Source: a virus (Duplodnaviria; Caudoviricetes). From it: a stretch of DNA of 64,000 nt. The stretch's first letter is position 1; the number at the start of each line of letters is the position of its first letter. The stretch spans positions 1 through 64,000 of IMG/VR virus record IMGVR_UViG_3300037067_007193. One strand, written 5' to 3'. Position numbers and translations under genes: made by a program. The notes under the pieces are model-generated. The model saw only the letters and a list, made by a program, of their open reading frames with translations. It ran no database searches and was not told the origin of the DNA. Of the stretch, positions 5,071 through 62,996 are shown piece by piece.

Positions 5071-5301
5071 TTAAATGTGAGTCGCATCAAGAAGATGCTC
5101 TGCTATGCTTTCAAGCTCAGTGATGTAGACTGCGTTCTGGTGCAGCCTCCACGCGCCGTATGCGCTTACAATGGACAGCGCCAGTAGGCCAAGCCCGAAA
5201 TTGAGGTCACGCCAGTACCCGGACTTGAAGCAATCGTGTAGAAACAGGCAAAACATCCCGAATAGAAATGCGCTGATAGACCCGAACAGGTAGGTATGCA
5301 T
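5071..5301 (-). CDS. Small membrane protein
   Basis: MHTYLFGSISAFLFG..., two hydrophobic segments; SD lies within an AGGAGTCGCATCCT hairpin. Confidence 0.65.
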   Translation of the reverse strand: MHTYLFGSISAFLFGMFCLFLHDCFKSGYWRDLNFGLGLLALSIVSAYGAWRLHQNAVYITELESIAEHLLDATHI

Positions 5302-5338
5302 AGGATGCGACTCCTGGGTTTTTGTGAATCGGGTGTTG

Positions 5339-5665
5339 CTAAAGCGTTGGTGTTGTTTCAAGAATTTCATTCGCCATTTGATGAGTCAAAAGGCCACCTA
5401 AAAATCTTTTTGACATTTCGCAATACTGGCCTTCTGGCAATTTTTTCAACATGGACACAAGGGTAGAATCGGGTATCAGGGCGAAATTGCGGTAAAGAAT
5501 TGTTTCGAGATTATCAAGCGCGTTCTTGGCGTCCTGAAAGCTGAAACCGACTTTGAATAAATCGTTGTGTGCGTTCGGATTTTTTAAAAATCCGGACTTT
5601 AATTCTTCCCATCGTTTGTAAAAATGGGATCGGATTTCGGCGGCAACGGCAGCTTCATTAGACAT
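5339..5665 (-). CDS. Hypothetical protein
   Basis: 108-aa ORF in operon context. Confidence 0.7.
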   Translation of the reverse strand: MSNEAAVAAEIRSHFYKRWEELKSGFLKNPNAHNDLFKVGFSFQDAKNALDNLETILYRNFALIPDSTLVSMLKKLPEGQYCEMSKRFLGGLLTHQMANEILETTPTL

Positions 5666-5861
5666 GGGATTTTACCTTTCGGCGTGACGGGCCTTTTTCA
5701 AGGATGATCTCAGTTTCCGAAATTGTAGCTCCGAGTATTGTTATGTCCATGTTGTCCGCCACATGGATAAGCTGGTGATCGCGCCAGATAATCCGACCGC
5801 CCCAACCAAAAGAATGGGCGAGGTCAGTTAAGCGAATACAGAATATGTCGGGTTTGGACAA
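5658..5861 (-). CDS. Hypothetical protein
   Basis: 67-aa ORF, TTG start downstream of GGAG. Confidence 0.55.
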   Translation of the reverse strand: MSKPDIFCIRLTDLAHSFGWGGRIIWRDHQLIHVADNMDITILGATISETEIILEKGPSRRKVKSHV

Positions 5862-5882
5862 GGTGTTTGCGACTCCTAATTA

Positions 5883-5910
5883 AATATATATTATTAAAAC
5901 AAAAAGTCAA
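5883..5910 (-). promoter_or_regulatory. Leftward sigma70-type promoter
   Basis: TTGACT-16-TATATT, followed by the GGAGTCGCA motif. Confidence 0.55.
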
Positions 5911-5982
5911 GAAAACAGGCTGAAAAAATAAGGGGTCAAAACACGTTGCCAGGGCGTGACACCTGCGTAACTGTTTGACCGA

Positions 5983-6062
5983 GGCATAGGGACAGCGGGC
6001 AAATCATGGATTGCGACTCCTGGTACGCCCGTGCTGGTCGCCAGACCAGCGGTCCCTATGCC
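5983..6062 (-). promoter_or_regulatory. Structured intergenic element (three-way junction) carrying a GAGTCGCA loop
   Basis: Perfect 11-bp inverted repeat GGCATAGGGAC; inner GCTGGTC/GACCAGC and CGGGC/GCCCG stems. Confidence 0.55.
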
Positions 6063-6066
6063 GTTT

Positions 6067-6600
6067 TTATTTCGCCATCGCCTTAGCTATATCCTTGAGG
6101 CGTGAGGCAGTAATGTGGTAATACACCTGTGTCGAGTTGATGCTTGTGTGCCTGAGCCATGCCTGACATTCTTCCAGCGAGTACCCGGCCTGACTCATAG
6201 CCATCGCCCGGCTGTGTCTGAGAACGTGCGGGCCGTGATCGGGACAGACCTTGCGCCAGATGTTTTCAATGGCATCGCCGGTCAAGCCTTTGCCTTTGTA
6301 ACCAGGGAAAAGATACTCGTGCTGGTGGGACAACTTGAGTTCCAGGATGCGCCGTCGCAAGTCGCCCTCAAGCGGCATCAGGTAGCGTTCCCGCTCCCCG
6401 CCCTTGCGCCCGGACTTGAGGACGGTCACTACAACACCGTGTTCCGTAACGTCCGAACGCCGTATCAGGCTGACTTCCCCGCGCCTCAGTCCGAGATAGT
6501 AGACAAATTCCAGCAGAAGCGGATTGGCTGACTTGGATATCAACTTGCGGACCTCCCTGTCCTCAAGGTACTTGATGCTGCGTTGACCATAGGTTTGCAT
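6067..6600 (-). CDS. Small tyrosine recombinase (catalytic domain only, 177 aa)
   Basis: LGLRRGEV (R), VLKSG (K), HVLRHS (HxxR), WLRH, TQVYY (Y). Confidence 0.9.
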   Translation of the reverse strand: MQTYGQRSIKYLEDREVRKLISKSANPLLLEFVYYLGLRRGEVSLIRRSDVTEHGVVVTVLKSGRKGGERERYLMPLEGDLRRRILELKLSHQHEYLFPGYKGKGLTGDAIENIWRKVCPDHGPHVLRHSRAMAMSQAGYSLEECQAWLRHTSINSTQVYYHITASRLKDIAKAMAK

Positions 6601-6615
6601 GATGCCCCTCCCCTT

Positions 6616-7001
6616 CTAAAACGGCATGTCTGGATCGGCCCCGGCATGGGGTTTTTCTTCCTGCTGCTGCTTTTCCTTCTGGCCCTTGCCGCCGAAAAGA
6701 ATAACAAGCTCAGAAGCCAGTATTTCCGTGATGTACCGCTTCCCACCGTCAGCTTCCCAATGCCGGGTCTGAAGCGTCCCCTCAAGATACACCTGAGTGC
6801 CTTTTTTGCAATAGTTTGATATTATTTCCGCCAGCTTTTCCCATGCCACTATGCGATTCCATTCGGTAACTTCCTTGTCGCCCCATTGCCGGGAAGTAGC
6901 AACGGTAAAGTTCACTACGGTCTTGCCGTTCTGTGTCGTGTTTTTCTTGGGATCGTCCGATAAAAACCGAGGATGGTTACGTGATTGACGCTACGTGACA
7001 T
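6616..7001 (-). pseudogene. ssb: Single-stranded DNA-binding protein, frameshifted in a T-run at 6962-6966
   Basis: MSRSVNHVTILG shifts frame into LSDDPKKNTTQNGKTVVNFTVAT...VYLEGTLQTRHW...DMPF; one extra T restores a 128-aa SSB. Confidence 0.9.
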
Positions 7002-7141
7002 TGCGTTCTCCCGTTCTGTTTGTGGACCGAGCGGCGGACGGATGCTGCAAATGCGATATTCACAACACCCGCCCGTCTCAGTGCGACTCCTGGGGCAACT
7101 TCGCTTGCTTTTTGATAATAAATTATATAAGTTAAGTAACA

Positions 7142-7417
7142 ATGGAAGGTGTAACGTTTTATGTTGTGTCTACAGCGGGGTCGCAATGTGATACTAACAT
7201 AAGGGCCAACTTCGTGTCAATAAAAAAAAATCCAAAAATCGAACGTTTCCGTATTGAATCCGATTTGTCGCAAATTTTACATACGGTTGCCAATGAGATG
7301 CCCCGCATGACCAAAACGTTGTTGGTTGAAATAGCCCTTGACTATCTTCTGAGACAGCATTCTTTGGAACAGATTGCGCAGATTGTGGGTGACTATTTTA
7401 CGAGAAAGCGCGAATAG
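7142..7417 (+). CDS. Ribbon-helix-helix (CopG/Arc-like) DNA-binding protein; start uncertain
   Basis: RFRIESDLSQILHTVA...MTKTLLVEIALDYLL beta-alpha-alpha pattern; divergent from ssb. Confidence 0.55.
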   Translation: MEGVTFYVVSTAGSQCDTNIRANFVSIKKNPKIERFRIESDLSQILHTVANEMPRMTKTLLVEIALDYLLRQHSLEQIAQIVGDYFTRKRE

Positions 7418-7557
7418 TTACCCGCGTTTGCGATAGATGCCATACAACAACAAACACACCATTGGTTGAAAAAATTCGGGATGCCGGTAAATTATGCCAG
7501 CCAAAACACAACAACAAATGCCCTCACAGATCGCTATTAGTGTTTCATAAAAATCTT

Positions 7558-7758
7558 TCACGCCGACCTCCACACTGTTTTCCTTATGCGATTCCTGCCC
7601 GATGGAGCAACCACAACAAACTGCGTTCCGTGCCTGTATACCGCCGAAGCCACCAAGTCACGGGCCGAGACTTTCAAATCTTCCGGCGGCAGTCTGCACC
7701 TTGCGAATCCTACGGCTTGCAAAGACTCAAGCCGGTGCTGCTGTGAATGGGTTAGCAT
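7558..7758 (-). CDS. Hypothetical protein
   Basis: 66-aa ORF with SD AAGGAG. Confidence 0.6.
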   Translation of the reverse strand: MLTHSQQHRLESLQAVGFARCRLPPEDLKVSARDLVASAVYRHGTQFVVVAPSGRNRIRKTVWRSA

Positions 7759-8046
7759 CTATGACTCCTTTTTATTTCCGTTCCGGCGGTGCTTGATGTC
7801 GAGTTGAGCGATGGCGCGACGCAAGGCTATGGTGCGGCCAACGCGACGGCAAAATGGTTCTTTAAAAGAGCAGCGGCAATGCCCACCACCCCAAATAAAT
7901 TCACCCTTTAACAGCGTACAATTTGTTATCCGAAAGACGCGCTTACGTTCGTCGGGGTATGTTGTAAAATGGTGGTATCTCACTTCTGTTATCCCCGCTT
8001 CTTCCAGCACCTTTTCAACCGGTATGTCCAGCTTGCCCTGGATCAT
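7759..8046 (-). CDS. Hypothetical phage protein
   Basis: Likely start MIQGKLDIPV; C-terminal FCRRVGRTIALRRA motif. Confidence 0.7.
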   Translation of the reverse strand: MIQGKLDIPVEKVLEEAGITEVRYHHFTTYPDERKRVFRITNCTLLKGEFIWGGGHCRCSFKEPFCRRVGRTIALRRAIAQLDIKHRRNGNKKES

Positions 8047-8244
8047 ACTTTCCTCCCGCGACACATTATCCAGATGGTCAAGGTGGCAACACACAGGACT
8101 ATTGCCAAGTCCGCGCCCTGCCGCACCGTGAAGTTATCCAAAACAGAGGACAGGTAGGTCATGAATCAATCTCCCTGCTTAATTCTTGGATTATCCATGA
8201 AATTACAAACAGAAGTAGCGTCCCGAACAAAATGAAAATAATTT

Positions 8245-8439
8245 TCATGGTTCCTCCGGGATTATTTTTAATTCGGGATCGTTACAGAAAATCAGAGAGG
8301 CGTGACCAGCAGCAAAAGAAGGATAGACTATCTCGATTGACCACACCGGGCGACCACATAGGGCAGTCATACCGGTTATCCGGCCAGTCTCGATACCATC
8401 GGAGATAAGCGTACCAATGCGTGCAGTGAGCGGCGGCAT
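8245..8439 (-). CDS. Hypothetical protein
   Basis: 64-aa ORF with SD AAGGAG. Confidence 0.5.
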   Translation of the reverse strand: MPPLTARIGTLISDGIETGRITGMTALCGRPVWSIEIVYPSFAAGHASLIFCNDPELKIIPEEP

Positions 8440-8442
8440 AGG

Positions 8443-9165
8443 TTACTCCTTCTTGCGGTAATCGTGTACTATTGTTCCGCCATCCCATACCTTGTTCACC
8501 GAGCCGCCATCCCATACCCTGTTCACCGAGCCGCCATCCCATACCTCGTTCACCGAGCCGCCATCCCATACCTCGTTCGCCGAGCCGCCATCCCATACCT
8601 TGTTCACCGAGCCGCCATCCCATACCTCGTTCACCGAGCCGCCATCCCATACCTCGTTCACCGAGCCGCCATCCCATACCTTGTTCACCGAGCCGCCATC
8701 CCTGACCTTGTTCACCGAGCCGCCAGCCCTGACCTCGTTCACCGAGCCGCCATCCCATACCTCGTTCACCGAGCCGCCATCCAACACTTCTATTTTCCCG
8801 CCATACAACCTTTCAATTTCAACACCCTTTGCCACTACCCACTTCCCACCTAACAGGATTTTCTTTTTCCCGTTGGTAATGATTGCCGCTTTCGCCCTTG
8901 TGTGTAGTTTGCGCTCCCATTGGGACTTTATCTCATCCGTAAGCCAGTCGGGTTCTTCTTGGTCAATGCGGAGTGCGTATTTGGTAATATCAACCAAGTC
9001 TTTGGTGTCGTCCGTGGTATATTCCACACGGCACCAGTTATTTTTCTCCGCATCGCCGGAATCGTCCAGATCGAGGGCAAGCAAAAGCATTTCGTGGCTG
9101 TCTGTGGCATCGTGGGTAAAAACATCGCCATCACGGAAGGCAATACCGGAAAGGTATCTGCACAT
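8443..9165 (-). CDS. Phage protein with C-terminal 9-aa (GGSVNEVWD) beta-solenoid-like repeats
   Basis: Globular N-terminus plus 11 tandem GGSxNxVxD units. Confidence 0.85.
   Translation of the reverse strand: MCRYLSGIAFRDGDVFTHDATDSHEMLLLALDLDDSGDAEKNNWCRVEYTTDDTKDLVDITKYALRIDQEEPDWLTDEIKSQWERKLHTRAKAAIITNGKKKILLGGKWVVAKGVEIERLYGGKIEVLDGGSVNEVWDGGSVNEVRAGGSVNKVRDGGSVNKVWDGGSVNEVWDGGSVNEVWDGGSVNKVWDGGSANEVWDGGSVNEVWDGGSVNRVWDGGSVNKVWDGGTIVHDYRKKE
8477..8782. repeat. 27-bp tandem repeat, about 11.3 copies (coding)
   Basis: Unit approximately CCGCCATCCCATACCTCGTTCACCGAG, no spacers. Confidence 0.95.
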
Positions 9166-9244
9166 GGTGCGACTCCATGCGAAAGGATAAGTTTTAAAGC
9201 TGAAATTGTGGCACTGACGGGTTTGCGACTCCGTTTCTAAGTTA

Positions 9245-9272
9245 AATATAATATCAAAAAAAGTTTTGTCAA
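9245..9272 (-). promoter_or_regulatory. Leftward promoter of a divergent pair
   Basis: TTGACA-16-TATATT followed by GGAGTCGCA; a rightward TTGACA lies at 9304-9309. Confidence 0.6.
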
Positions 9273-9374
9273 GCGTTTGAACATAAATTTTTGTCCCGTT
9301 TGCTTGACAAACTGAATTTTTTTACGCATATATCTTAGGCATCTCTGCCATGAAACCAGGAGTCGCATCCAGGT

Positions 9375-10187
9375 ATGGTTAAAATCCCCGGCGGATACAT
9401 ACGCCTGCATCGCCAGTGCCTTGACAATGGCTGGCTCAGGAATCCACATCTGTGGACTTTCTGGTGCTATTGCCTGCTCAGGGCATCCCATGCCCCATTT
9501 ACCGCAAACATTGGCCTACAGTGTATAGATTTGGAGCCGGGGCAATTTGTCTGCGGAAGAAAACAGATTGCCAAAGAATTAAACATGACCGAAAGGCAAG
9601 TTCGATACTATTTCTCAACGCTGGAATTGCGCCAAAACTTGGTCATAAAAACGTCCAACAAATTTTCCGTTGTAACCGTTGTCAACTGGCAATCTTATCA
9701 ATTCAACGAAAATGAATTGTCCAACAAAGGGCCAACAAAGGGCCAACAAAGGGCCACATACAATAACATAAGAACAGAAGAACAAATACAAAAAACACTG
9801 TTCACTTATGAGCCAGTGAACGTAGATTTTTTTGAAACGTGGTGGAAAGTCTATCCGAAGAAAGCCGACAAGAAAGCCGCTCAAAAAGCCTGGAATAAAA
9901 TCAAACCCGACAGCACCAAAGCCGACCAGCTTATTCAAGCCGTCAAAAATCAAATCGCATGGAGAGAATTAGCAAGCGGTGAGTTCCGCCCGGCATGGAA
10001 AAACGGGGCCACTTGGCTTAATGGCGAATGTTGGAACAATCCAACCGACTCTGGTACTCCCGTGAATGTGTCCCATTCTGTCCGCTGCGCCAACCCCGAC
10101 AAATATCCGCCGTGCGGGACTGTCTGGAACCTGAATGAACGTTCCGCCTGCCCGCGTTGTGGCTGGAAATACGAGGAAAAGAAATGA
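9375..10187 (+). CDS. Phage replication initiator (lambda O/DnaD-like)
   Basis: GYIRLHRQ...LWTFWCYCLLRA, GQFVCGRKQIAKEL, FETWWKVYPKKADK; directly upstream of dnaB. Confidence 0.85.
   Translation: MVKIPGGYIRLHRQCLDNGWLRNPHLWTFWCYCLLRASHAPFTANIGLQCIDLEPGQFVCGRKQIAKELNMTERQVRYYFSTLELRQNLVIKTSNKFSVVTVVNWQSYQFNENELSNKGPTKGQQRATYNNIRTEEQIQKTLFTYEPVNVDFFETWWKVYPKKADKKAAQKAWNKIKPDSTKADQLIQAVKNQIAWRELASGEFRPAWKNGATWLNGECWNNPTDSGTPVNVSHSVRCANPDKYPPCGTVWNLNERSACPRCGWKYEEKK
9721..9756. repeat. Iterons (CCAACAAAGGG x3), likely replication origin
   Basis: 11-bp tandem repeats inside the initiator gene, as in lambda O. Confidence 0.7.
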
Positions 10188-11482
10188 CACATGAACAGAA
10201 CGAAGCCGCTGTTGTGTCCTGTATGCTTATGAACGCGGATGCCATAACCGAAGCTATTCAGCAATGCAGGCCCGAATATCTGTCAAACGAAAAGCTCCGC
10301 ACTCTGTACAGCGTGATTGTGTCCCTATATGAGCGCGGGATTGAGGTTGATATTCCCGTCCTAACAGACGAACTGAGAAAGAAAAACCGGTTGCAGGACA
10401 TAGGAGCGCCGTTTGTTTTCGAGGTTGCCCGTCAAGTTGCGGCATGGCAGAATATCGGGCATTACTGTACGCGGGTGCGGGAACACTGGCAGTTAAAGCG
10501 CCTGAAAGAAATAAGCGGAGAGATAGAGAACCAGATAGCACAGCCATTGGTTGACGCGGGTGAATTACTCGACAAAGTGGAAACCCAACTTGTTGCTATC
10601 CGGGATAGTAGTTTACAGCCGACAACCGCGCCGGTAAAAGACGGATTGCAGCAATTTGAATCTGAGCTTGAGGAACGCGGAAAGACTGGCAAGCTACCCG
10701 GCATACTGACAGGACTAAGGTCACTTGACCGCACCACTGGCGGCATGAGAAAGAAAAAATTAATCGTTGTCGCTGCCCGTCCGGGCATGGGAAAATCAGC
10801 CCTTGCCCTCACCATCTGTAAGAATCTGGCGGAACAATCCCCGCCTGTATCCAGCCTGATAATCAGCCTGGAGATGTCGCGAGATGAATTGATCGAGCGC
10901 CTCATGTGTCAGGAAACGGGTTACACGGTTTACGATTTCCGTGAGTCTGAGAGGATAGCAAGCATTGACTGGCCGAAAGTCAACATAGCTCTCAACAGAT
11001 TGTACAGTGATGAGATTTACATTGACGATGCACCGACACACACGCTGTTGGAAATACGGGCAATCGCCCGTAAGTGGAAACGTCAGGCCAATATTGGCTT
11101 GTTGGTAATCGACTACATGCAGTTGATCCATACGCGGGGCAGGACGCGGAACGAGGAAGTTGCAGAGATAAGCCGAGACTTGAAAAGGCTGTCAAAGGAG
11201 CTTGATATTCCCGTTATGGCAATCTCTCAGTTGAGCCGTAAGACAGAGGAAAGGGCCGACAAGCGGCCCTGTATGGCAGACCTGCGGGAATCAGGCAACA
11301 TCGAACAGGATGCGGATGAAATATGGTTTGTCTATCGCCCCTGGACAGCCGGGACACAAGAGATTGACGGGCGCTCAACCGAAGGGCTTGCGATTATTAT
11401 CGTCGAGAAAAACCGGGGCGGAGCGACCGGAGATATTGAGACTTATTTTGACGCGCCGCGTTTTGCATTCCGGGACTTATAA
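10184..11482 (+). CDS. dnaB: Replicative DNA helicase
   Basis: AARPGMGKS Walker A, ISLEMS, VIDYMQLI, ADLRESGNIEQDAD, KNRGG. Confidence 0.95.
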   Translation: MTHEQNEAAVVSCMLMNADAITEAIQQCRPEYLSNEKLRTLYSVIVSLYERGIEVDIPVLTDELRKKNRLQDIGAPFVFEVARQVAAWQNIGHYCTRVREHWQLKRLKEISGEIENQIAQPLVDAGELLDKVETQLVAIRDSSLQPTTAPVKDGLQQFESELEERGKTGKLPGILTGLRSLDRTTGGMRKKKLIVVAARPGMGKSALALTICKNLAEQSPPVSSLIISLEMSRDELIERLMCQETGYTVYDFRESERIASIDWPKVNIALNRLYSDEIYIDDAPTHTLLEIRAIARKWKRQANIGLLVIDYMQLIHTRGRTRNEEVAEISRDLKRLSKELDIPVMAISQLSRKTEERADKRPCMADLRESGNIEQDADEIWFVYRPWTAGTQEIDGRSTEGLAIIIVEKNRGGATGDIETYFDAPRFAFRDL

Positions 11483-11485
11483 CAC

Positions 11486-11519
11486 AAAAAAGCCCGGCTT
11501 TTGACCGGGCTTCCCTTTG
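11486..11519. terminator. Bidirectional intrinsic terminator between convergent units
   Basis: AAAAAAGCCCGG-loop-CCGGGCTT. Confidence 0.7.
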
Positions 11520-11537
11520 TCTGGCGTTGCCGTTGAA

Positions 11538-11747
11538 TCATGCCACGTTTACCCATTTCATGCAGGTTTGAATTGCGTGGTCGTAATCGCCGCTCATCGT
11601 CTCGTTTTGAAACTCCTTGATTTCTTCCGGCGGCACTTCTGCTCGGCGCAGGGCTTCGGAAACCCGTCCGATGATAGAAAAAACATTTCCGTCTTCTCTT
11701 GAAAGTTGTACGTCAACATCAGGATACTTGCATCTTTCTGTTTCCAT
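11538..11747 (-). CDS. Conserved small phage/plasmid protein
   Basis: DGNVFSIIGRVSEALRRA...SGDYDHAIQTCMKWV pattern. Confidence 0.75.
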   Translation of the reverse strand: METERCKYPDVDVQLSREDGNVFSIIGRVSEALRRAEVPPEEIKEFQNETMSGDYDHAIQTCMKWVNVA

Positions 11748-11760
11748 TTGCTCCCCCTGT

Positions 11761-11820
11761 GTTTTGTCCGGACTTGAGACCGGGCTTGTGGTTTACAGGG
11801 CTTGCGCCCTGCTCTCGCCT
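11761..11820 (-). ncRNA. Twister-like self-cleaving ribozyme candidate (permuted, P1 closed by GCAA)
   Basis: GGC-GAGAG-[CAGGGC GCAA GCCCUG]-UAA-ACC-AC-AAGC-[CCGG UCUCAAGU CCGG]-ACAAAA; T1 CUC/GAG and T2 AC/GU pairings fit; P2 imperfect. Confidence 0.45.
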
Positions 11821-11883
11821 TGTGTTGGCGGCGGGTCTCTGTTTTTGTTCATGTGCATCCTCGGCATGTAGCCGGGTTAAGGG

Positions 11884-12075
11884 TTAGCCGTTGTATTCTT
11901 CGCCGAAAATTTCCTCACAGTGTGCTATCCAGTCGTTATTCAGTTCTTCAAGGCAGAGTTCCATAACGCCTGGAACGGCTAAAATTGTTGCCACTTCAAG
12001 GCCAGCTATCCAGCCCGTGAATTTGTCATTGTCGTTGACCATTTCGCGGAGTTCTTTTTGCTTGTCTGGCTTCAT
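11884..12075 (-). CDS. Hypothetical protein
   Basis: 63-aa ORF, SD GGAGGG. Confidence 0.65.
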   Translation of the reverse strand: MKPDKQKELREMVNDNDKFTGWIAGLEVATILAVPGVMELCLEELNNDWIAHCEEIFGEEYNG

Positions 12076-12078
12076 CTT

Positions 12079-12291
12079 TCACCCCTCCACGCGGGCAGAG
12101 CCGCAGACGTTACCGTTGATGTCGCGCAAGGTGTCACAGAAAAGCGGTACGCCCTTTAAAACATTTTCAAAATCTACATTTTCTAAACTGCGGTATTCTT
12201 TCGCTGATCTTTCAAGTATCCGCGCAACCTCGGTTCCGGCGTAAGGATCAAACGCCTCGCCCTTCATGTCAATCTCAATCACCAGCTTCAT
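12079..12291 (-). CDS. Hypothetical phage protein
   Basis: MKLVIEIDMKGEAF...LRDINGNVCG; SD AGGAGG. Confidence 0.75.
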   Translation of the reverse strand: MKLVIEIDMKGEAFDPYAGTEVARILERSAKEYRSLENVDFENVLKGVPLFCDTLRDINGNVCGSARVEG

Positions 12292-12322
12292 TTGATGCCT
12301 CCTGAGAGTTAGGTTTGGTTTA

Positions 12323-12371
12323 TCCATCGACGGGCTTGCGCCCGTTTCGGCCTATGCCTCGTCAGGATGGA
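12323..12371 (-). ncRNA. Type I hammerhead ribozyme
   Basis: UCCAUC-CUGACGA-GGC AUAG GCC-GAAA-CGGGC GCAA GCCCG-UC^GAUGGA: full core, three stems, GUC cleavage triplet. Confidence 0.9.
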
Positions 12372-12372
12372 G

Positions 12373-12792
12373 TTAGTTTCCTTCTGAAAAGTCCGGGGCA
12401 AGGATAACATATCCGCCCCAATCCTTATAAATCCCGGTCAGTTTTTCACTCGGTCCCGTATGCAGCTTGAGCGCATACCCGCGAGGGTCACGGTTGATTT
12501 TTATATCCCCGGCGCGTTGCTTGCCGATAATCGCCGCCACCTTGTCGCGCAAGGCATCCGTCCAGGTGTCGAGTTTATCACCATCAATCCGACCGTCTGT
12601 ACCTTCAAGATCAGGATAAGGGGCCGGATTGGCGTTGCAGTATGCCAGCATAACACGCTCGGCTTTTGCTTCCAGCCGCCGCAGCTTGCGGCACAGGTCA
12701 AACGGGTCTGTTTCCGGCGGTAAGCCGAAAACGCGCTTTAAATTCTCGCCGTGCGCCTCGATTGCCTTGTACATCCTTTCTTTCTTGTTCAT
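12373..12792 (-). CDS. Hypothetical phage protein
   Basis: MNKKERMYKAIEAHG...INRDPRGYALKL...DWGGYVILAPDF. Confidence 0.75.
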   Translation of the reverse strand: MNKKERMYKAIEAHGENLKRVFGLPPETDPFDLCRKLRRLEAKAERVMLAYCNANPAPYPDLEGTDGRIDGDKLDTWTDALRDKVAAIIGKQRAGDIKINRDPRGYALKLHTGPSEKLTGIYKDWGGYVILAPDFSEGN

Positions 12793-12800
12793 GGTTTCCC

Positions 12801-12905
12801 TCACGCGAAAAGATACGCCAATTCGAGCAAAAGCCCGAACAGGACAATGAGAAAAACTATAAAGTGGACAGTCTCAGAAATAGTAAAGCTTGGTCTGTGC
12901 TGCAT
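12801..12905 (-). CDS. Small membrane peptide (34 aa)
   Basis: MQHRPSFTISETVHFIVFLIVLFGLLLELAYLFA; hand translated. Confidence 0.45.
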   Translation of the reverse strand: MQHRPSFTISETVHFIVFLIVLFGLLLELAYLFA

Positions 12906-12949
12906 TTGAAACCCTCGTGACAGGGTTAGGAGGTTGCGACTCGTGTATC

Positions 12950-12978
12950 ATTATAATAATAACAACAAAACTTGTCAA
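12950..12978 (-). promoter_or_regulatory. Consensus sigma70 promoter
   Basis: TTGACA-17-TATAAT, with GAGTCGCA at the transcript start. Confidence 0.8.
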
Positions 12979-15255: not shown

Positions 15256-15422
15256 GTTGTCCCCTGTGACAGGTTAAAGGTTAGATGCGACAATTAATCA
15301 TATCATCCAGACCTGGAAAAGTCAAGTTTTCCCTGCCATGCTGACAGTTCAGACCTGATTTTTCAGGTGCAAGACAGGGCAAAACACATAAGGCAGTACA
15401 TAGCAACAAGATACAAGGCTTA

Positions 15423-28434: not shown

Positions 28435-30474
28435 GTGGAGATTTACGCAATGGCAATGGAAGTTGCAAATCCCGAAAAAGTAAAACGCAACAAGGGTGTA
28501 AAGAAACTTCTCGATTTCATCGGTGAACTGAACATAGCCGACAAGTTCAACGATGTAGACGGGCAGCGCGAGTTGGATGAGATCGGGCATCTTGTCTGTG
28601 ACGAGTTCAAGATAGACAAGGAAAGCCGCAAGGATTGGGAAACTCAGATGGAAATAGCGGACAAACTTGTCCGTCTGTTGGCTGAGAGAAAGACTTTCCC
28701 GTGGGACGGGGCCAGCAATGCCATCTATCCCCTAATGGCACAGGCGGCGATACAGTTCAACTCCCGCAGCCTGCCCCTGATGACAAAAGCGCAACGCGCT
28801 ACGAAGTGCCGTGTCAACGGTCCCGACCCACAAGGCATCAAGGCAAAAATAGCCGATCTTGTTGGTGAACACATGAGTTGGCAGTTACTTGACGAGATGG
28901 ATGACTGGCTTGGCGAACAGGACTCCATGCTTCTGGCGCTGCCGATCATGGGTTGCGCCTTCAAGAAGGTGTACCGCGACATCCCGAACCAGCGCAATGC
29001 CTCTGAATACTATTCCCCGATGGACATAGTAATAAACTACAAAGCCCGGAACATGCAGTCGGCAAAGCGTATCACGCACGTGTTCGAGTTGTCCAAGCGC
29101 GAGATAGTGGAGCGCCAGCGTGCGGGGATTTTCCTTGAGATAGACTTGGGGCATGGAGACCAGAAGGCCGAGACGGGTGACATCAAAGAACAAGACCCGT
29201 CATTCGTTCTTCTGGAACAGCACCGTTGGCTTGACTTGGATGATGACGGTCTGGATGAGCCATACATCGTGACCGTTCACCAGGATTCTGAAAAGGTTCT
29301 GCGCATCCGCCCGCGCTATGATGAGCGCGGAATCGTCCTGACAGCGGATGAGAAGCGCATAGCCAGAATAAAGCCAATTCAGTTTTTCGTGCGGTATCTG
29401 TTTATGCCATCCCCGGACAGGAACATCTATGGCTACGGCTTCGGGCAACTACTTCTGCATCCGAGCGTCCTGATTAACAGTATCATCAACCAGACGATAG
29501 ATGCCGGGACGTGGTACAACACGAACGCCGGATTCGTGTCGCGTGATTTAGGGGCCGGGCGCGGTTTGGTGACATTCCAGCCGAATGAGAAGAAAGTAGT
29601 CGATTCGGTCGATGACATCAACAAGAAGATATTCATGCTTCCGGCCCGCGAACCGAGTCAGACTTTGTTCAGTGTTCTTGGGCTTCTGCTTGAGGCGTCT
29701 GAGCGGCTTGGAAACAGCGTGGATGTCCTGACCGGAGAACACAGCACATCCAACCAGCCCGCCAGCACGACACTCGCCCTGATCGAACAGGGGTTAAAGT
29801 TCTACAAGGCGGCGATCGGAAGACTGTTCAAGGGCTTGAAAGACGAGTTCAAGTTGCTGTTCGACCTGAATGCCCGGTATATGTCCGCGACCGAGGAACA
29901 GTTCTTCCGCTTGTTTGAGACGGAGGACAGAACCATATCCGGCGCGGCGTACAACACCGAATCGCTGGACGTGGTTCCGGTGAGTGCGAACGAGGAAGTA
30001 ACTGTTGTCGAGAAACTGATAAAGGCGGAACAGTTGCAGCAGTGGTCGGCGCAGCGCGGCTTCCCGTGGCAAGTTCAGAGGAACATAGACCTCCGCTATC
30101 TTGAGGCGTTGGGACAGGAAGACATTGACGCAATACTTCCTCCACCCGATTGGCAACCACCGACAGACCCGAAGGTTGAACTGGACAGAATGAAACTTGA
30201 ACTGGATGCCAAGAAGTTGAAGAACGAAGACATGAAGATGGGTATGGAGTTGCAGAAGCTTCCTCTGGAACTGATGAAACTGAAACTTGAGTTGCTGGAA
30301 AAGAAGGAAGGCATCAAGGACAAGGCACTCAAGGCGCAGGTGGATGCCGCAGCGAAAATCGCGGATTCGGACACAAAGAGAAAGAAGGTTGAAGTTCAGG
30401 ATAAGATGGCAGATAACCAGGTCAAGATTGCGGCAAGCAAGCCGAAACCCAAAGCGACGGGAGCGAAGAAATGA
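28435..30474 (+). CDS. Portal protein (podovirus-type)
   Basis: 679 aa after terL; PWDGASN, DSMLLALPIMGCAFKKVY; coiled-coil barrel C-terminus. Confidence 0.9.
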   Translation: MEIYAMAMEVANPEKVKRNKGVKKLLDFIGELNIADKFNDVDGQRELDEIGHLVCDEFKIDKESRKDWETQMEIADKLVRLLAERKTFPWDGASNAIYPLMAQAAIQFNSRSLPLMTKAQRATKCRVNGPDPQGIKAKIADLVGEHMSWQLLDEMDDWLGEQDSMLLALPIMGCAFKKVYRDIPNQRNASEYYSPMDIVINYKARNMQSAKRITHVFELSKREIVERQRAGIFLEIDLGHGDQKAETGDIKEQDPSFVLLEQHRWLDLDDDGLDEPYIVTVHQDSEKVLRIRPRYDERGIVLTADEKRIARIKPIQFFVRYLFMPSPDRNIYGYGFGQLLLHPSVLINSIINQTIDAGTWYNTNAGFVSRDLGAGRGLVTFQPNEKKVVDSVDDINKKIFMLPAREPSQTLFSVLGLLLEASERLGNSVDVLTGEHSTSNQPASTTLALIEQGLKFYKAAIGRLFKGLKDEFKLLFDLNARYMSATEEQFFRLFETEDRTISGAAYNTESLDVVPVSANEEVTVVEKLIKAEQLQQWSAQRGFPWQVQRNIDLRYLEALGQEDIDAILPPPDWQPPTDPKVELDRMKLELDAKKLKNEDMKMGMELQKLPLELMKLKLELLEKKEGIKDKALKAQVDAAAKIADSDTKRKKVEVQDKMADNQVKIAASKPKPKATGAKK

Positions 30475-30725
30475 TTCTGGTGGAAGGCATCAGCAAGGAA
30501 GATTTTGAGGCGTGGAAGTCGGCTATCCTGACGCAGCATATCTTAGCGTCAGTCCGAAAAGCCCGCGATGAGAAAGGCGATTACATGCGGCGCGGTCAAA
30601 CTCTGGACGCAAACAGCGCAGAACGCACGCAAGCCTTGACAGCAGAGGCTTTTGGATATTGTGCCGCCCTGAACGATGTCCTAACGATGGAAGCCGATGA
30701 AAAAATAAATCCCGTTATCTCTTGA
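30471..30725 (+). CDS. Conserved small protein downstream of portal
   Basis: 84 aa, ATGA coupling. Confidence 0.7.
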   Translation: MILVEGISKEDFEAWKSAILTQHILASVRKARDEKGDYMRRGQTLDANSAERTQALTAEAFGYCAALNDVLTMEADEKINPVIS

Positions 30726-30750
30726 CAAAAAGGTCTTTTTATATTATATT
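30722..30750 (+). promoter_or_regulatory. sigma70 promoter
   Basis: TTGACA-17-TATATT. Confidence 0.75.
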
Positions 30751-30764
30751 GGAGATGAGAGAAT

Positions 30765-30950
30765 ATGGAACGTTCTCAACTTTTCCGTTTGATACAGGAA
30801 AAGATTGATGCGGAGATAGGAAACAAGCTGAACGGGCGTGTGGTTTTTACCGTAAGTCTTGGAGATGGTGGTATCCGGTTGTGCGAGTGCCAGACGACCG
30901 AGATTCTTCAGATACAGAAAAAGCCCGAACTGAAGGTGATAGCAAAGTAA
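30765..30950 (+). CDS. Small hypothetical protein
   Basis: 61 aa downstream of the 30722 promoter. Confidence 0.65.
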   Translation: MERSQLFRLIQEKIDAEIGNKLNGRVVFTVSLGDGGIRLCECQTTEILQIQKKPELKVIAK

Positions 30951-30953
30951 ATT

Positions 30954-31128
30954 ACGCGGCGGGCTTTGTCCCGCACCCCCCCCGTTGCGACTCTTTAGCG
31001 TTGTGGGAGCCGCCCGCCGCGTGAACATATTGTAGTAAAGATTCGGCACTAAGAATCTCGCCCCAAAGGGCGACCATTCGATAGCCCGGATGGAAGAGGA
31101 TAAAACCTCTCCTGTCCGGGCCTTTTTT
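30954..31128 (+). ncRNA. Structured 3'-UTR RNA / candidate sRNA ending in an intrinsic terminator
   Basis: 11-bp ACGCGGCGGGC stem, UCCCGCA/UGUGGGA, loop CGACUCUU, two further hairpins, GCCCGGA/UCCGGGC plus U-tract; G-U pairs favour the + strand. Confidence 0.55.
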
Positions 31129-31157
31129 ATTTTACCCCTATCCAGAAGGCGACAGCC

Positions 31158-31526
31158 ATGCAGAAAACCCCTCTACTCACCCGCGAAACAATGAAAACCC
31201 GCACTGAGGACTGCCCTCCCGGAAGACCGGCAGGACACCGACTCCTTGTGCGAGTTGAAACCAAAGAAGAAAAAGTCGGAAGCATTATTATTCCCGAACA
31301 ACACGGAGAGGCCTGTGAACGGGCCAAGGTGTTGTGCGTGGGAGAAAACGCTTTTATGGGATACGGCGACAGCCATCCGTGGTGCGAAGCTGGCGACATA
31401 ATTCATTTCGTGCGCTATGCTGGTAAGGAAGTCGTGTTTTTAGGCGACACCAGCAAATACCGGGTGATTAATGACGAGGATGTCTATTGGGTTTGCGACA
31501 AGGAAGCGGGGGTGACTCGTGGCTGA
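31158..31526 (+). CDS. groES: GroES-like co-chaperonin
   Basis: PAGHRLLV, GSIIIP, KVLCVG, GDIIHFVRYAG, VINDEDV. Confidence 0.85.
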   Translation: MQKTPLLTRETMKTRTEDCPPGRPAGHRLLVRVETKEEKVGSIIIPEQHGEACERAKVLCVGENAFMGYGDSHPWCEAGDIIHFVRYAGKEVVFLGDTSKYRVINDEDVYWVCDKEAGVTRG

Positions 31527-45359: not shown

Positions 45360-45696
45360 TATGGCAACGATAAACGTCCGCGCCCCGATGGAAACACCGA
45401 TGTTCGATGGCAACGACAAGATGGCCGTGGCATGGCAGCGGTATTTCAGCACGCTTGGGGATAAACTCTCGACCGCCTTTGGCAGCATAACAGAAAGCAC
45501 CCTTACGACAGTGACCATTGGTTCGGATGCCGTGGATGTAACAACCCCCGTGGCTGTAACCGGTACGGACAGCGTTGACCTGACCGCGCTCAACGTGACA
45601 CTTGCGACTCTGGCGACTGAAATAAATGCGATAGTGACTGTACTAAACGCACTGAATGACAAACTGGTTCAAACCAACCTGATGACAGAATTGTAA
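45352..45696 (+). CDS. Small tail protein
   Basis: MAVAWQRYF motif; position after the nozzle. Confidence 0.6.
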   Translation: MRDMATINVRAPMETPMFDGNDKMAVAWQRYFSTLGDKLSTAFGSITESTLTTVTIGSDAVDVTTPVAVTGTDSVDLTALNVTLATLATEINAIVTVLNALNDKLVQTNLMTEL

Positions 45697-53200: not shown

Positions 53201-54093
53201 TCAGATGGAAAGATGATGACCAGTTCCGGGCCGCCCTTCTTGGTTCTCTGAATGGGCTTCTGATTGTGGGTAACTGGTTGGAAGACATTGCTCAGGCCGG
53301 TGTGTCCACCGCCATGAAACTCCCCTACTTCATTGGAGAGACGGGCGGGAACCCGGTCTTTGAGAACTTCACGCAACTGAAAGATGCCGTTATCCGCGCA
53401 GCAAAGGTAGCACGAGACGGTGATTATACATGGAAAGACATCACCTTTGTCATCGACAAGTCGGCTGACTTTATCGGCAAGGCTATCGGTGTCCCGGTAG
53501 GCGCTCCGCTGAGAATTGGCGAAGGCGCTTATCGTTTCATGGAGCGCGGGGAAATCAAGCCGCTGGAACTGCTTGGATATTCCCAATACGCACTCGGAGA
53601 ATCAAACCCGAAGCGTCAATTGCTCAACTCCCTGGAAGAATACTACGAAGTCCCGAAAGACGAACGCGACCCGCGCCAGTTGCAGCAGTTGAAGGCTGAC
53701 ATCGAGGAATACAACAAGAACGCATACAAGAACGAGTCGGCCCTGATCCGGGAGGAAGAAACCAAGCGCCTGTCCCGCGAACCAAAACAAGTGGCGATGG
53801 AACTTCTGAGTTCCAGTTCCGAGCGGGTACTGAGCGACAATTCTGTGAAACTGTTCAGGCATAAACTGAATCTGGCCCTGGAACACGGCGCGATCACTCA
53901 GAAGCAGTACGACCGCTACTTGGGCGACTTCAACACGAACCAGGAAGCACAGAAGGCCTTGAAAGAGACGTACTACAAGTTGGGCGAAGAACCGCCGAAG
54001 AAATCAAACAGGGCGATACCGGGGCAACCGCGCCCGCCGCAGCCGCCAAGACAGAACAGAACCAACAGAACACCTTTGATATATACACAGTAA
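47257..54093 (+). CDS. Giant ejection / polyvalent protein (2278 aa)
   Basis: Position in ejection module; internal NHEIMHYG (HExxH) zincin-like motif; helical C-terminal region. Confidence 0.75.
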   Translation: MPSSIEKLYTAGSKYYDLGGFDVFSTKMTNPESRQKVYDALSAHYDLGDYDTFDSKVTGGLRPVGPIEEAPIQQAEAQPQTPFGMVNRFVQDSVANDPDLAGLDAELNNDLFGPEVGRPQLATSPDTGGVGVELEEAPAVQDDGRSYPEKVKESFRRGMVSADLDEEGFDLYMKQGFGGDVEEATQDWLRRRADFQRQQQEDPVTSGNPLSKAFLSAVEMTGPMAKGTLEGLIFGGIAAGTTGPAAVATAPIATMIGAGQYWTRQGFGSMYAANLEKGIDPKVAGAIAGGMAPIYAAIEFSQVSKIAPGLEKAMVRKLSDSATKIVAKAAAKYGADIFTESGEEVLQEVTQMAAEEGAIAINNLMHDTPEIKHTSAQQAWDRVYETFKSTLAPMAILLGPKRIHGTAADVKARKELEKEVQNLDADQLKSLGLTEEKLKTDFGIDLKGKPTEAQQKRTDEYMSGAEESIKRQVSEAMKPKDEVTQPFTKELSPEAEAVIKEAEAEKAPAVETDKEVEDILSGFAEDESEQVTQPVSETKTTEAISEVAQEEKAPKVVPTASPEAQGETISTRPTSGIPQEEKPTETERKFVAALDEEERLQAEAEAVEEERLVAEYKAEQQPTIKENLIVDPVVAEKATTGSTADVSAAPVTEKPLGNIEDVKAQKEPWEMTAKEFDAEFMFHGKGESHPLFGKEKITGGATKHYSLASGYATGSTTQPGKGEVHLVRRSELPVGAIQEMKDTGRVDVISGMGVVPAKSAGIIPTGLENPHQYIIEKALSEGRPVSPEVLKDYPDLAAKYGKTAPSSETPSLVFATSGRPFKTEKAALNYARHKGSGYTAVPVEGGFAVKEPEVTAAPKSEGKVISQAEADKIVERELNRLEKENLSWEQDVKFSARPVSTATAQPLGMGVIQVERILRPLKGKLNIPVRVIGSIEDIEDLKNRAAAIYEQRKDNVVSGYYDEKSNEIVVIADGVHSEKELIYDLMNHEIMHYGTAGLLGEKGYAGFLSDLQKDKVIGPQIKKLAEDYGWGSEYAASEWWAMQSEGRDIEKLPTNIINRILFYIRKWLRERFGADRVGFTRNELLDLMRQSYAYALGGEATAKTAEGETAFRVQESAATVLRQLKEVYSAIETLPPVRSGQSTSGIRQRLEAKAQELENRIQSGEVRFRSQPSGPRLEKIVQGMERALAERFAESVKQGLAGEGSKKDYIKKHYSDLIRERIKAIKQGHLIGGRGLKESLDEVKRFILNYAREYLPKEGITRGQVKPLLTAVATAENADDMLVAYDRVDKITRTVTEKELRGDISKLVKKYKTVRKDNRLKGKLVADEQHRVDDINAIIRMKPDQVKAEMEKIFEAMNNRAKDQNNPDAGEATALENEMLYRLDKFGDLRHKTVGQLRAAKAELEEIIATGKSKRQAKDEARREKMNQFVGGQLELLTSHKGILSEEQVAALGKQKKEGIITLGLQGQFSFEYLLDELNKAQKDAKPLHTALNNFFMPKIHTARNSETKGIRETMKMVQEKMAEIYGTKSANELLKLATKNTVPEDTGVKVKQGETEVPLILSQEQAYKLWQEWQDPTLAETFEKMGYTQETINGLEKFITPENMKWAKWQLDEFYPQYYESVNKVFRERYDVDLPFNPVYSPIARRYNRNDAEDDLMLNENKSYFSGVYSRHLMSRVNNTRGLKLLGGDTTLINHILEMEHFKAWAEPMREMRSFFSNEKVRTAIKQNFGPHTMRKVDDFLNDMARGKLDPRGVDHFLDAMRRNFTTAVLGINLTLIPKQMASFPAYWAEIPTTDFWGGFVDFMRNPRKAMDVLAESETLKARYGEGFDRDIMLAWHKTSQHELSGKRSWRDIVMFPTLVGDKVAVVMGGWSVYRYHYRKALGVGMSEADAKKKAMYEFEMSTNRSQQAGNIEDLPSLMRGNSWAKLFTMFQTAPNSYFRIEASAIRNLVRGRGNTAENLKRLAVSHFVLPMLFQFVANGFRWKDDDQFRAALLGSLNGLLIVGNWLEDIAQAGVSTAMKLPYFIGETGGNPVFENFTQLKDAVIRAAKVARDGDYTWKDITFVIDKSADFIGKAIGVPVGAPLRIGEGAYRFMERGEIKPLELLGYSQYALGESNPKRQLLNSLEEYYEVPKDERDPRQLQQLKADIEEYNKNAYKNESALIREEETKRLSREPKQVAMELLSSSSERVLSDNSVKLFRHKLNLALEHGAITQKQYDRYLGDFNTNQEAQKALKETYYKLGEEPPKKSNRAIPGQPRPPQPPRQNRTNRTPLIYTQ

Positions 54094-62892: not shown

Positions 62893-62996
62893 TTGACAAA
62901 AGGATACGAATATCTTATATTGAAGTGTAGAGGAATTTTCTCTACTTTTATTCACTTGGGGCTGTGCGGAGCCGCGCCTTCGCATAGCCCTTTTTT
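62893..62996 (+). ncRNA. Promoter plus ~70-nt ORF-less transcript ending in a strong terminator (candidate sRNA)
   Basis: TTGACA-17-TATATT (62893-62921); GTAGAG/CTCTAC hairpin; 12-bp GGGCTGTGCGGA stem plus U6. Confidence 0.5.

Follow-up and report, generated by a model that had tools for sequence, protein, structure and literature searches.

Whether a short structured RNA encoded next to the head genes of a phage could control the early genes of the same phage, or merely resembles their complement by coincidence, is the question raised by the locus described here. The DNA analysed, referred to as the window, comprises bases 1-64000 of a 75,588-base IMG/VR phage record. An initial annotation had proposed that an RNA transcribed from a host-type promoter in the head operon exposes, in an apical loop, the complement of a word repeated in the early region, and that this RNA acts in trans on many early genes as an immunity system or an early-to-late switch.

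The RNA belongs to a small transcription unit, hereafter the cassette, which is separated from the portal gene upstream by an 84-aa ORF and is followed directly by the gene for a GroES-like co-chaperonin (Table 1). Farther upstream, a 499-aa protein matches PHROG 5902, a family without an assigned function, and is possibly the large terminase, judged by its position. A blastn search of phage GenBank records gave no match. Among 20 ORFs scanned for lifestyle genes none was CI-like, in agreement with the initial annotation, and the integrase-type evidence consisted of a 177-aa tyrosine recombinase only; the phage is at most putatively temperate. The portal protein has six relatives at 66-71% identity, with none closer among 5.8 billion proteins, and five of these six loci were recovered (L002, L003, L081, L092 and L082, the last being contig Ga0307928_10000169). 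As a single query the portal protein found nothing in IMG/VR; the portal alignment A1 used as the query found two close loci in IMG/VR and three in metagenomes, and no close locus in GTDB genomes. Two relatives, G001 (53.9 kb) and G002 (58.8 kb), were read whole.

Table 1. Features of the cassette, of its surroundings and of the early region, with the slot contents of relatives. Positions refer to the window unless a relative or the whole genome is named.
Feature	Position	Strand	Remarks
PHROG 5902 protein, 499 aa	26905		family match without function
Portal gene	28435-30474		5' of the cassette
Sigma-70-type promoter	30722-30750	+	TTGACA-17-TATATT; 11/12 consensus positions
Small ORF, 61 aa	30765-30950	+	invariant GG.R motif; kept in five relatives
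Compound hairpin, GC-rich, 72 nt	30952-31023	+	13-bp and 7-bp stems, apical loop of about 26 nt, C8 run; slot content of the window
UUGCGACUCUU	30985-30995	+	in the apical loop; complement of (AG)GAGUCGCA(A)
Hairpin A	31040-31056	+	from the fold; 3' part ACUAAGA partly kept in sequence (alignments A2, A3)
Hairpin B, GC-rich	31058-31073	+	structure conserved, sequences differ
Intrinsic terminator	31084-31133	+	15 pairs within stem 31084-31121, then U6-A-U4
GroES-like co-chaperonin gene	31158-31526	+	Pfam Cpn10 2e-11, PHROG 3188; first gene 3' of the cassette
Cys-Asp-Ser run, one-mismatch anti-word copy	32365
Major head protein gene	33976
Cys-Asp-Ser anti-word copies in relatives	L082:9197, L092:9480	-
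Early region with 9 of 11 with-transcription word copies (proposed targets)	5079-12942
Remaining two with-transcription word copies	18674; genome position 75132		the latter outside the window
Word class CCAGGAGTCGCA, close to the start codon	5306, 6012, 9168, 9360, 75132		1-6 nt 5' of ATG
Word class CCAGGAGTCGCA, further upstream of the start	7082
Word class GAGTCGCAA	5079, 5868, 9224, 12935		6-18 nt 3' of the -10 box
Slot of L002	L002:12894-13161 (tRNA genes)		tRNA-Ser(CGA), tRNA-Ser(GCU), tRNA-Tyr(GUA), then about 200 nt of folded RNA
Slot of L003	L003:12960-13240 (strongly folded RNA)		second small ORF, then about 280-370 nt of folded RNA of unknown kind
Slot of L082	L082:7425-7592 (strongly folded RNA)		82-aa and 187-aa ORFs, then about 170 nt of RNA
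Slot of L092			ORFs of 144, 96 and 87 aa

A promoter-to-terminator frame upstream of the GroES gene

The promoter postulated at 30722 was confirmed and is the top-scoring site within 26-38 kb. At the equivalent place, 5' of the small ORF, all five relatives carry a promoter of the form TTGAC(A/T)/TTGCAT ... TATTAT. Elsewhere in the window, a promoter at 62893-62925 nearly matches that of the cassette in the -35 flank and the -10 region (ATCTCTTGACAAAAGG ... TTATATTG). The 61-aa ORF that the initial annotation placed downstream of the promoter also held up: homologues of 54-59 aa occupy the equivalent place in the five relatives, those of L002, L092, L082 and L081 were matched by tblastn (E 6e-13 to 9e-5), and the alignment of the small ORF (A4) has six members. 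Neither Pfam nor PDB returned a match for its product, for which a DUF2292-like lead is weak; from the sequence comparison we regard the ORF as a real gene.

The RNA that follows the ORF (30951-31135) has a predicted fold of -81.9 kcal/mol (z = -6.9 against dinucleotide shuffles) and a U6 tail, which bears out the earlier description of a multi-stem RNA ending at a terminator. The terminator has a GC-rich stem-loop and, on the transcribed strand, a U run behind it, and 25 nt separate its end from the GroES start codon. In the relatives, this 3' module is made up of hairpin B, a short linker, a near-invariant terminator stem, a U run and the GroES ribosome-binding site. For hairpin B, RNAalifold on alignment A3 gives six pairs, several of which are maintained by changes on both sides. 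The terminator is the DNA of the locus most conserved across the five relatives, with its pairs kept, and it is strand-specific because of conserved G-U pairs. Apart from the 3' module, no DNA at the locus aligns when the window is compared with L003 by blastn, and the covariance model of the module (R1) matches these phages only among 92 sources. The module was not found with this model in more distant portal relatives, which keep the synteny of portal and GroES genes without the small ORF and the 3' module. Over 31058-31133, compared with L002, L003, L082 and L092, the terminator stem is almost invariant though the flanking genes no longer align as DNA, and three G-U pairs in it are conserved; judged from these alignments, the constraint on the stem exceeds the need of a plain terminator.

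From this arrangement we infer that host RNA polymerase would start at the near-consensus promoter, transcribe the conserved small gene (55-61 aa) first and the content of a hypervariable slot next, and stop at the module of hairpin B and terminator. As transcription would stop before the GroES gene, cassette transcripts would stay out of the head genes, and late transcription coming from upstream would have to read through the terminator.

With its own promoter, its own terminator, a position among late genes and a content that varies among relatives, the cassette resembles the phage morons, which are an established kind of unit with promoter and terminator in late operons (PMC7067206). As in lambda lom and bor, a small unit set among late structural genes has a strong host-type promoter at one end and an intrinsic terminator at the other; in the present case, however, the frame is conserved in six phages and only the inner slot varies, and the cargo is an RNA and not a protein. 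By analogy with morons, the cassette could be expressed from a repressed prophage.

A variable slot and the hairpin of the window

At 208 nt, the slot that separates the small ORF from the 3' module is shorter in the window than in the relatives (about 570-1,550 nt), where it holds tRNA genes, other small ORFs or folded RNAs (Table 1). The non-coding RNAs in the slots of L003 and L082 are strongly folded (z about -5); in Rfam, no match of the L003 RNA at E<=10 reached the gathering score, and none of the L082 RNA reached it either. The 72-nt hairpin of the window is absent from the slots of all five relatives, none of which shows significant similarity to it, and no homologue was found among the sequences compared, including an IMG/VR search with the loop, in which the exact loop 16-mer occurred in seven unrelated contigs. 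Because the content of the slot differs in each relative, the hairpin is, on comparative grounds, window-specific cargo in the hypervariable slot of a moron-like cassette.

Several candidate counterparts were considered and rejected. The 5' domain of the L003 slot RNA begins with the same 17 nt after the stop codon, but its score as a homologue of the hairpin lay within that of shuffles. The L082 sequence GUUGCGACCCUUAAG is identical to the loop at 13 of 15 positions, which was not significant, and it is mostly paired in its own fold; the word complementary to UUGCGACCCUU of L082 would be GGGTCGCA. L102 has four copies of the word, but these stand in coding-like contexts and the phage is unrelated.

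The compound hairpin is supported by both the MFE and the centroid fold, and its perfect 11-nt inverted repeat occurs nowhere else in the window. The claim that its apical loop exposes the complement of the early word proved correct: the exact 8-mer TGCGACTC, here called the anti-word, stands at 30986-30993 and costs about 2 kcal/mol to open in every transcript context folded, with per-base unpaired probabilities across 30985-30995 mostly of 0.5-0.98. In an alternative form, the loop comprises 8 nt on a weak 5-bp stem and exposes CGACUCUU. The predicted duplexes of the loop with 11 early sites range from -14 to -24 kcal/mol, and at six of these sites the pairing can be extended from the exact 8-mer to 10-11 bp, as had been suggested. 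The additional proposal that the C8 tract pairs with G-rich Shine-Dalgarno sequences fails on geometry, since the tract lies 5' of the anti-word and faces the sequence 3' of the word; a G run is present there at one target only (7082). No minus-strand promoter fits that would turn the site at 30986 into a with-transcription copy of the word. The C4/CI family of Rfam gave no gathering-score match in the window, no Rfam family matched 30700-31200 at E<=10, and no tRNA-like feature was detected by ARAGORN in the window or by Rfam in 30700-31200.

The repeated early word

The window has 12 copies of the counterpart of the anti-word, GAGTCGCA, where 1.76 are expected (0 of 100 shuffles reached this). 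In the 75.6-kb genome there are 13 copies against about 1.4-2 expected, and no other 8-mer of the genome is as over-represented. Eleven of the 13 copies are oriented with transcription and stand at early promoters and ribosome-binding sites, in the two sequence classes listed in Table 1; those at 5306, 6012, 9168, 9360 and 75132 overlap Shine-Dalgarno sites. The CCAG prefix of the word looks like the ordinary ribosome-binding-site context of the clade, judged from sequence, and CAGARGG is found at the ribosome-binding site of the GroES genes in all relatives.

The initial annotation placed the early words in loops, and this held for most of them. Eight of the 11 with-transcription copies lie in small local hairpins presenting GUCGCA, whose summed energy is -34.7 kcal/mol versus -13.4 +/- 4.9 kcal/mol in shuffled flanks with the core fixed (0 of 500 shuffles). 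The words themselves, however, are no easier to open than background 8-mers of the early region (4.9 vs 4.1 kcal/mol in contexts of +/-80 nt). The position of the stem relative to the word varies from site to site, and the eight nucleotides are invariant. The word probably acts at the RNA level as a linear sequence, and its reader could be a base-pairing RNA or a single-strand-binding protein. We also considered the word as a presumed complement of 16S rRNA and dropped this reading.

A protein reader is the main alternative for the GAGUCGCA word and, by analogy with phage T4, would make the hairpin irrelevant. RegB and RegA of T4 bring about the post-transcriptional shut-off of early messages (PMC3014915), and there too a short early Shine-Dalgarno sequence marks many messages for one trans factor, which in T4 is a protein (PMC3014915).

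G001 and G002 contain GAGTCGCA once each, in G001 inside a tRNA-Ser gene, and the Ser-GCU tRNA gene of L002 holds the only copy of that genome. A search for an analogous word in G001 and G002 by k-mer enrichment yielded tandem repeats and ordinary words only; RRTCGCA in G002 was rejected, as it showed no pattern. Five word-tagged proteins gave no tblastn hits in G001 and G002, where the early modules are not homologous. In IMG/VR, the replication initiator had partial matches of 27-43% only, with no close relative of the early module, and DnaB had none. The pattern CCAGGAGTCGCA-N4-ATG was rejected as evidence of a shared word system in IMG/VR, where it was found in one contig as four copies of one long repeat. 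This contig, L140 (IMGVR_UViG_3300018489_000058), belongs to an unrelated phage; its repeat, with copies at 5117, 5555, 14739 and 17340, is at least 70 nt long and has CCAGGAGTCGCA-N4-ATG at its end. The twelve letters of CCAGGAGTCGCA are a ribosome-binding-site context elsewhere too.

Other features of the early region were recorded along the way. On the minus strand, 7178-7220 contains a good promoter (TTGACA-18-TAGTAT) whose transcript would begin with AUUGCGACCCC, which complements the word with one mismatch. About 95 nt farther downstream this transcript would carry the word copy at 7082, and pairing in cis is possible. About eleven tandem 27-nt repeats (8496-8790) lie inside a word-tagged ORF of 240 aa (8443-9165, minus strand), and a different repeat of period 27 stands at the end of G001 (53741-53893). 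A match to the Twister-P5 ribozyme scores 49 bits against a gathering score of 37.6 at 11768-11819 on the minus strand. After promoters, the element UAACCUU(U)AAC ... CAGGGGAC occurs in the window at 15290-15325 and at 12900-12978 (minus strand) and in G002 at 52631 and 56404 (plus strand); this leader element is common to the window phage and G002 despite their non-homologous early genes.

Coincidental match or regulatory pairing

At a per-position expectation of 0.9-1.4e-5 per strand, the chance of finding one anti-word in the transcribed strand of the non-coding DNA (about 7.5 kb) is 0.07-0.11, and it falls to about 0.03-0.04 if an accessible position is also required. Of anti-oriented copies the late region has two, at 30986 and, in coding DNA, at 45603, where 0.5-0.8 would be expected. 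The anti-word is also present in coding DNA of relatives, in a conserved Cys-Asp-Ser codon run of a scaffold-like gene that follows GroES (Table 1); since this run creates anti-words, such matches arise easily. The match between loop and word is real but cannot be separated from chance, and the caveat of the initial annotation that a single 8-mer match lies within chance is upheld. Word and hairpin are both unique to this genome among the sequences compared, a pattern that would fit a pair acquired together and would also fit chance.

Our preferred reading, which as a whole we hold tentatively, is that of a moron-like cassette with a cis-acting or otherwise unrelated cargo hairpin that matches the early word by coincidence; the cassette architecture taken alone is highly probable. 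This reading builds on the observed architecture, the conserved frame, the variable slot, the fold and the accessible loop. The 72-nt hairpin would form the start of the 3' UTR and would most likely serve in cis as a stabilising structure or one for RNase III-type processing, or else be a cargo RNA of unrelated function, and a role in trans on the early genes would be absent. Promoter, small ORF and terminator module are kept in five relatives whose portals are 66-71% identical, the slot changes from genome to genome with nothing like the hairpin in any relative, and a non-coding anti-word would turn up by chance in roughly one genome in ten; all this argues for cargo and coincidence. Against coincidence, the matched word is not an arbitrary one but the most over-represented 8-mer of the genome, and its eight invariant nucleotides, its orientation and the varying position of the stems point to linear recognition at the RNA level, which base pairing would explain well. 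Moreover, within this stand-alone transcript the most stable hairpin carries the anti-word where it is most accessible, and the restriction of both word and hairpin to this genome is what would be expected of a regulator gained together with its targets.

The view of the initial annotation, a trans-acting antisense RNA, we consider unlikely. In this model the loop UGCGAC(UC) would base-pair with GUCGCA loops or GAGUCGCA words that stand at the 5' ends and ribosome-binding sites in about 10 early transcripts. The RNA would be the whole message of roughly 370 nt or a processed 3'-UTR fragment, and pairing would block translation or trigger decay, giving an immunity-like or shut-off control that includes the replication-initiator gene at 9375 among its targets; this lineage would have gained word and anti-word jointly. 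The exact complementarity, its extension at six sites and the strong predicted duplexes make the pairing thermodynamically feasible, the loop is cheap to open, and the targets lie in mini-hairpin loops well beyond what shuffled flanks produce, with a variable stem position that suits base pairing better than a protein reading a fixed hairpin. The RNA also belongs to an independent transcription unit, whose strong host-type promoter could allow expression from a prophage as in a moron, or constitutive expression as for c4 (PMC12197685), and the word that it matches is the one word of the genome that needs a reader. Yet chance could account for the match, the hairpin is found in none of the relatives, and relatives without the word system also have the frame. 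In loop-loop (kissing) antisense pairs such as CopA/RNA I, each partner offers its complementary bases in a hairpin loop. On the predicted folds, 8 of 11 targets are in mini-hairpins; on the side of the regulator, the anti-word stands in a floppy apical loop, about 26 nt long, that is not a pre-organised kissing loop, or else in 8 nt on a weak 5-bp stem. The words, moreover, are no more accessible than background 8-mers. Furthermore, the RNA offers no complement to the conserved CC that precedes the word in its ribosome-binding-site form, and the C8 tract cannot reach the Shine-Dalgarno sequence of the same site. Because the cassette promoter and the early promoters share one host-polymerase type, the sequence offers no delay for an early-to-late switch, and the RNA would be co-expressed with its targets.

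Known systems provide precedents for such an RNA by analogy, at some distance. The c4 RNA of P1/P7 pairs at the ant ribosome-binding site through loop sequences (PMC12197685). Like c4 and the CI RNA of P4 (Rfam C4), the cassette RNA is a small structured phage RNA with a loop complementary to ribosome-binding-site words, but it has no match to the C4/CI covariance model and its targets are not in the same operon. Whereas c4 and CI are released by RNase P and have two target sites within the operon that encodes them, the cassette RNA is a 3' UTR of the late region with about 10 proposed targets 18-26 kb away on other transcripts; the mechanism would be c4/CI-like in principle, but its genome-wide scale is not described in the review (PMC12197685). 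STnc6030 of the Salmonella prophage BTP1, an RNA from the late region with its own promoter and proposed targets in the phage's own messages, gives superinfection exclusion (PMC7067206). It is a 786-nt cis-antisense RNA overlapping its targets (PMC7067206), whereas the cassette RNA is sense to its neighbours and would act in trans through a word of 8-11 nt. The cassette also has features of a third group. Bacterial small RNAs derived from 3' UTRs consist of a structured 3' UTR that shares the intrinsic terminator of the message and has a long U tail. The cassette RNA is likewise a structured 3' UTR with the terminator of its message, but its putative seed is in an internal hairpin loop and not in a single-stranded 5' region.

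That the hairpin is a cargo RNA with another function in trans (a decoy, an anti-defence RNA or a processed stable RNA), the anti-word being irrelevant, is improbable in our judgement. The slot does hold other RNAs in relatives: large folded ones in L003 and L082, and in L002 three tRNAs. A perfect 13-bp stem has about the length of the stack of tRNA acceptor stem and T arm, a shape accepted by RNase P-type enzymes, and the stem of the hairpin could be likened to it. On the other hand, ARAGORN and Rfam see nothing tRNA-like in 30700-31200, and the hairpin has no homologue among the sequences compared. A leader that decides on read-through into the GroES and head genes, by attenuation or antitermination in the manner of lambda PR'-tR', is less probable still. 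The terminator lies directly 5' of the GroES ribosome-binding site with no promoter between them, and the sequence of its stem and hairpin B are unusually conserved, which speaks for such a leader; but no convincing antiterminator pairing was found, a conserved protein gene, together with tRNAs or ORFs in relatives, is unexpected in a sensing leader, and the part that bears the anti-word is the non-conserved one.

We return to the moron-like cassette with a coincidental match as the preferred reading. Even if the pairing is not real, the cassette clearly illustrates how a promoter-to-terminator frame can be conserved within a cluster of head genes. From one related phage to the next its inner slot exchanges tRNAs, unknown RNAs and small genes, which makes the cassette useful for finding new phage RNAs; without real pairing it would otherwise be an ordinary kind of feature. 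Control through a repeated word is known for protein repressors (stoperators, RegB), but we know of no such case for a trans-acting phage RNA. Should the pairing prove true, a single short RNA of the phage would govern many early genes at scattered positions by means of a repeated word, which would provide RNA-based immunity or early shut-off in a phage without a recognisable repressor, and the GAGUCGCA word would gain its missing reader.
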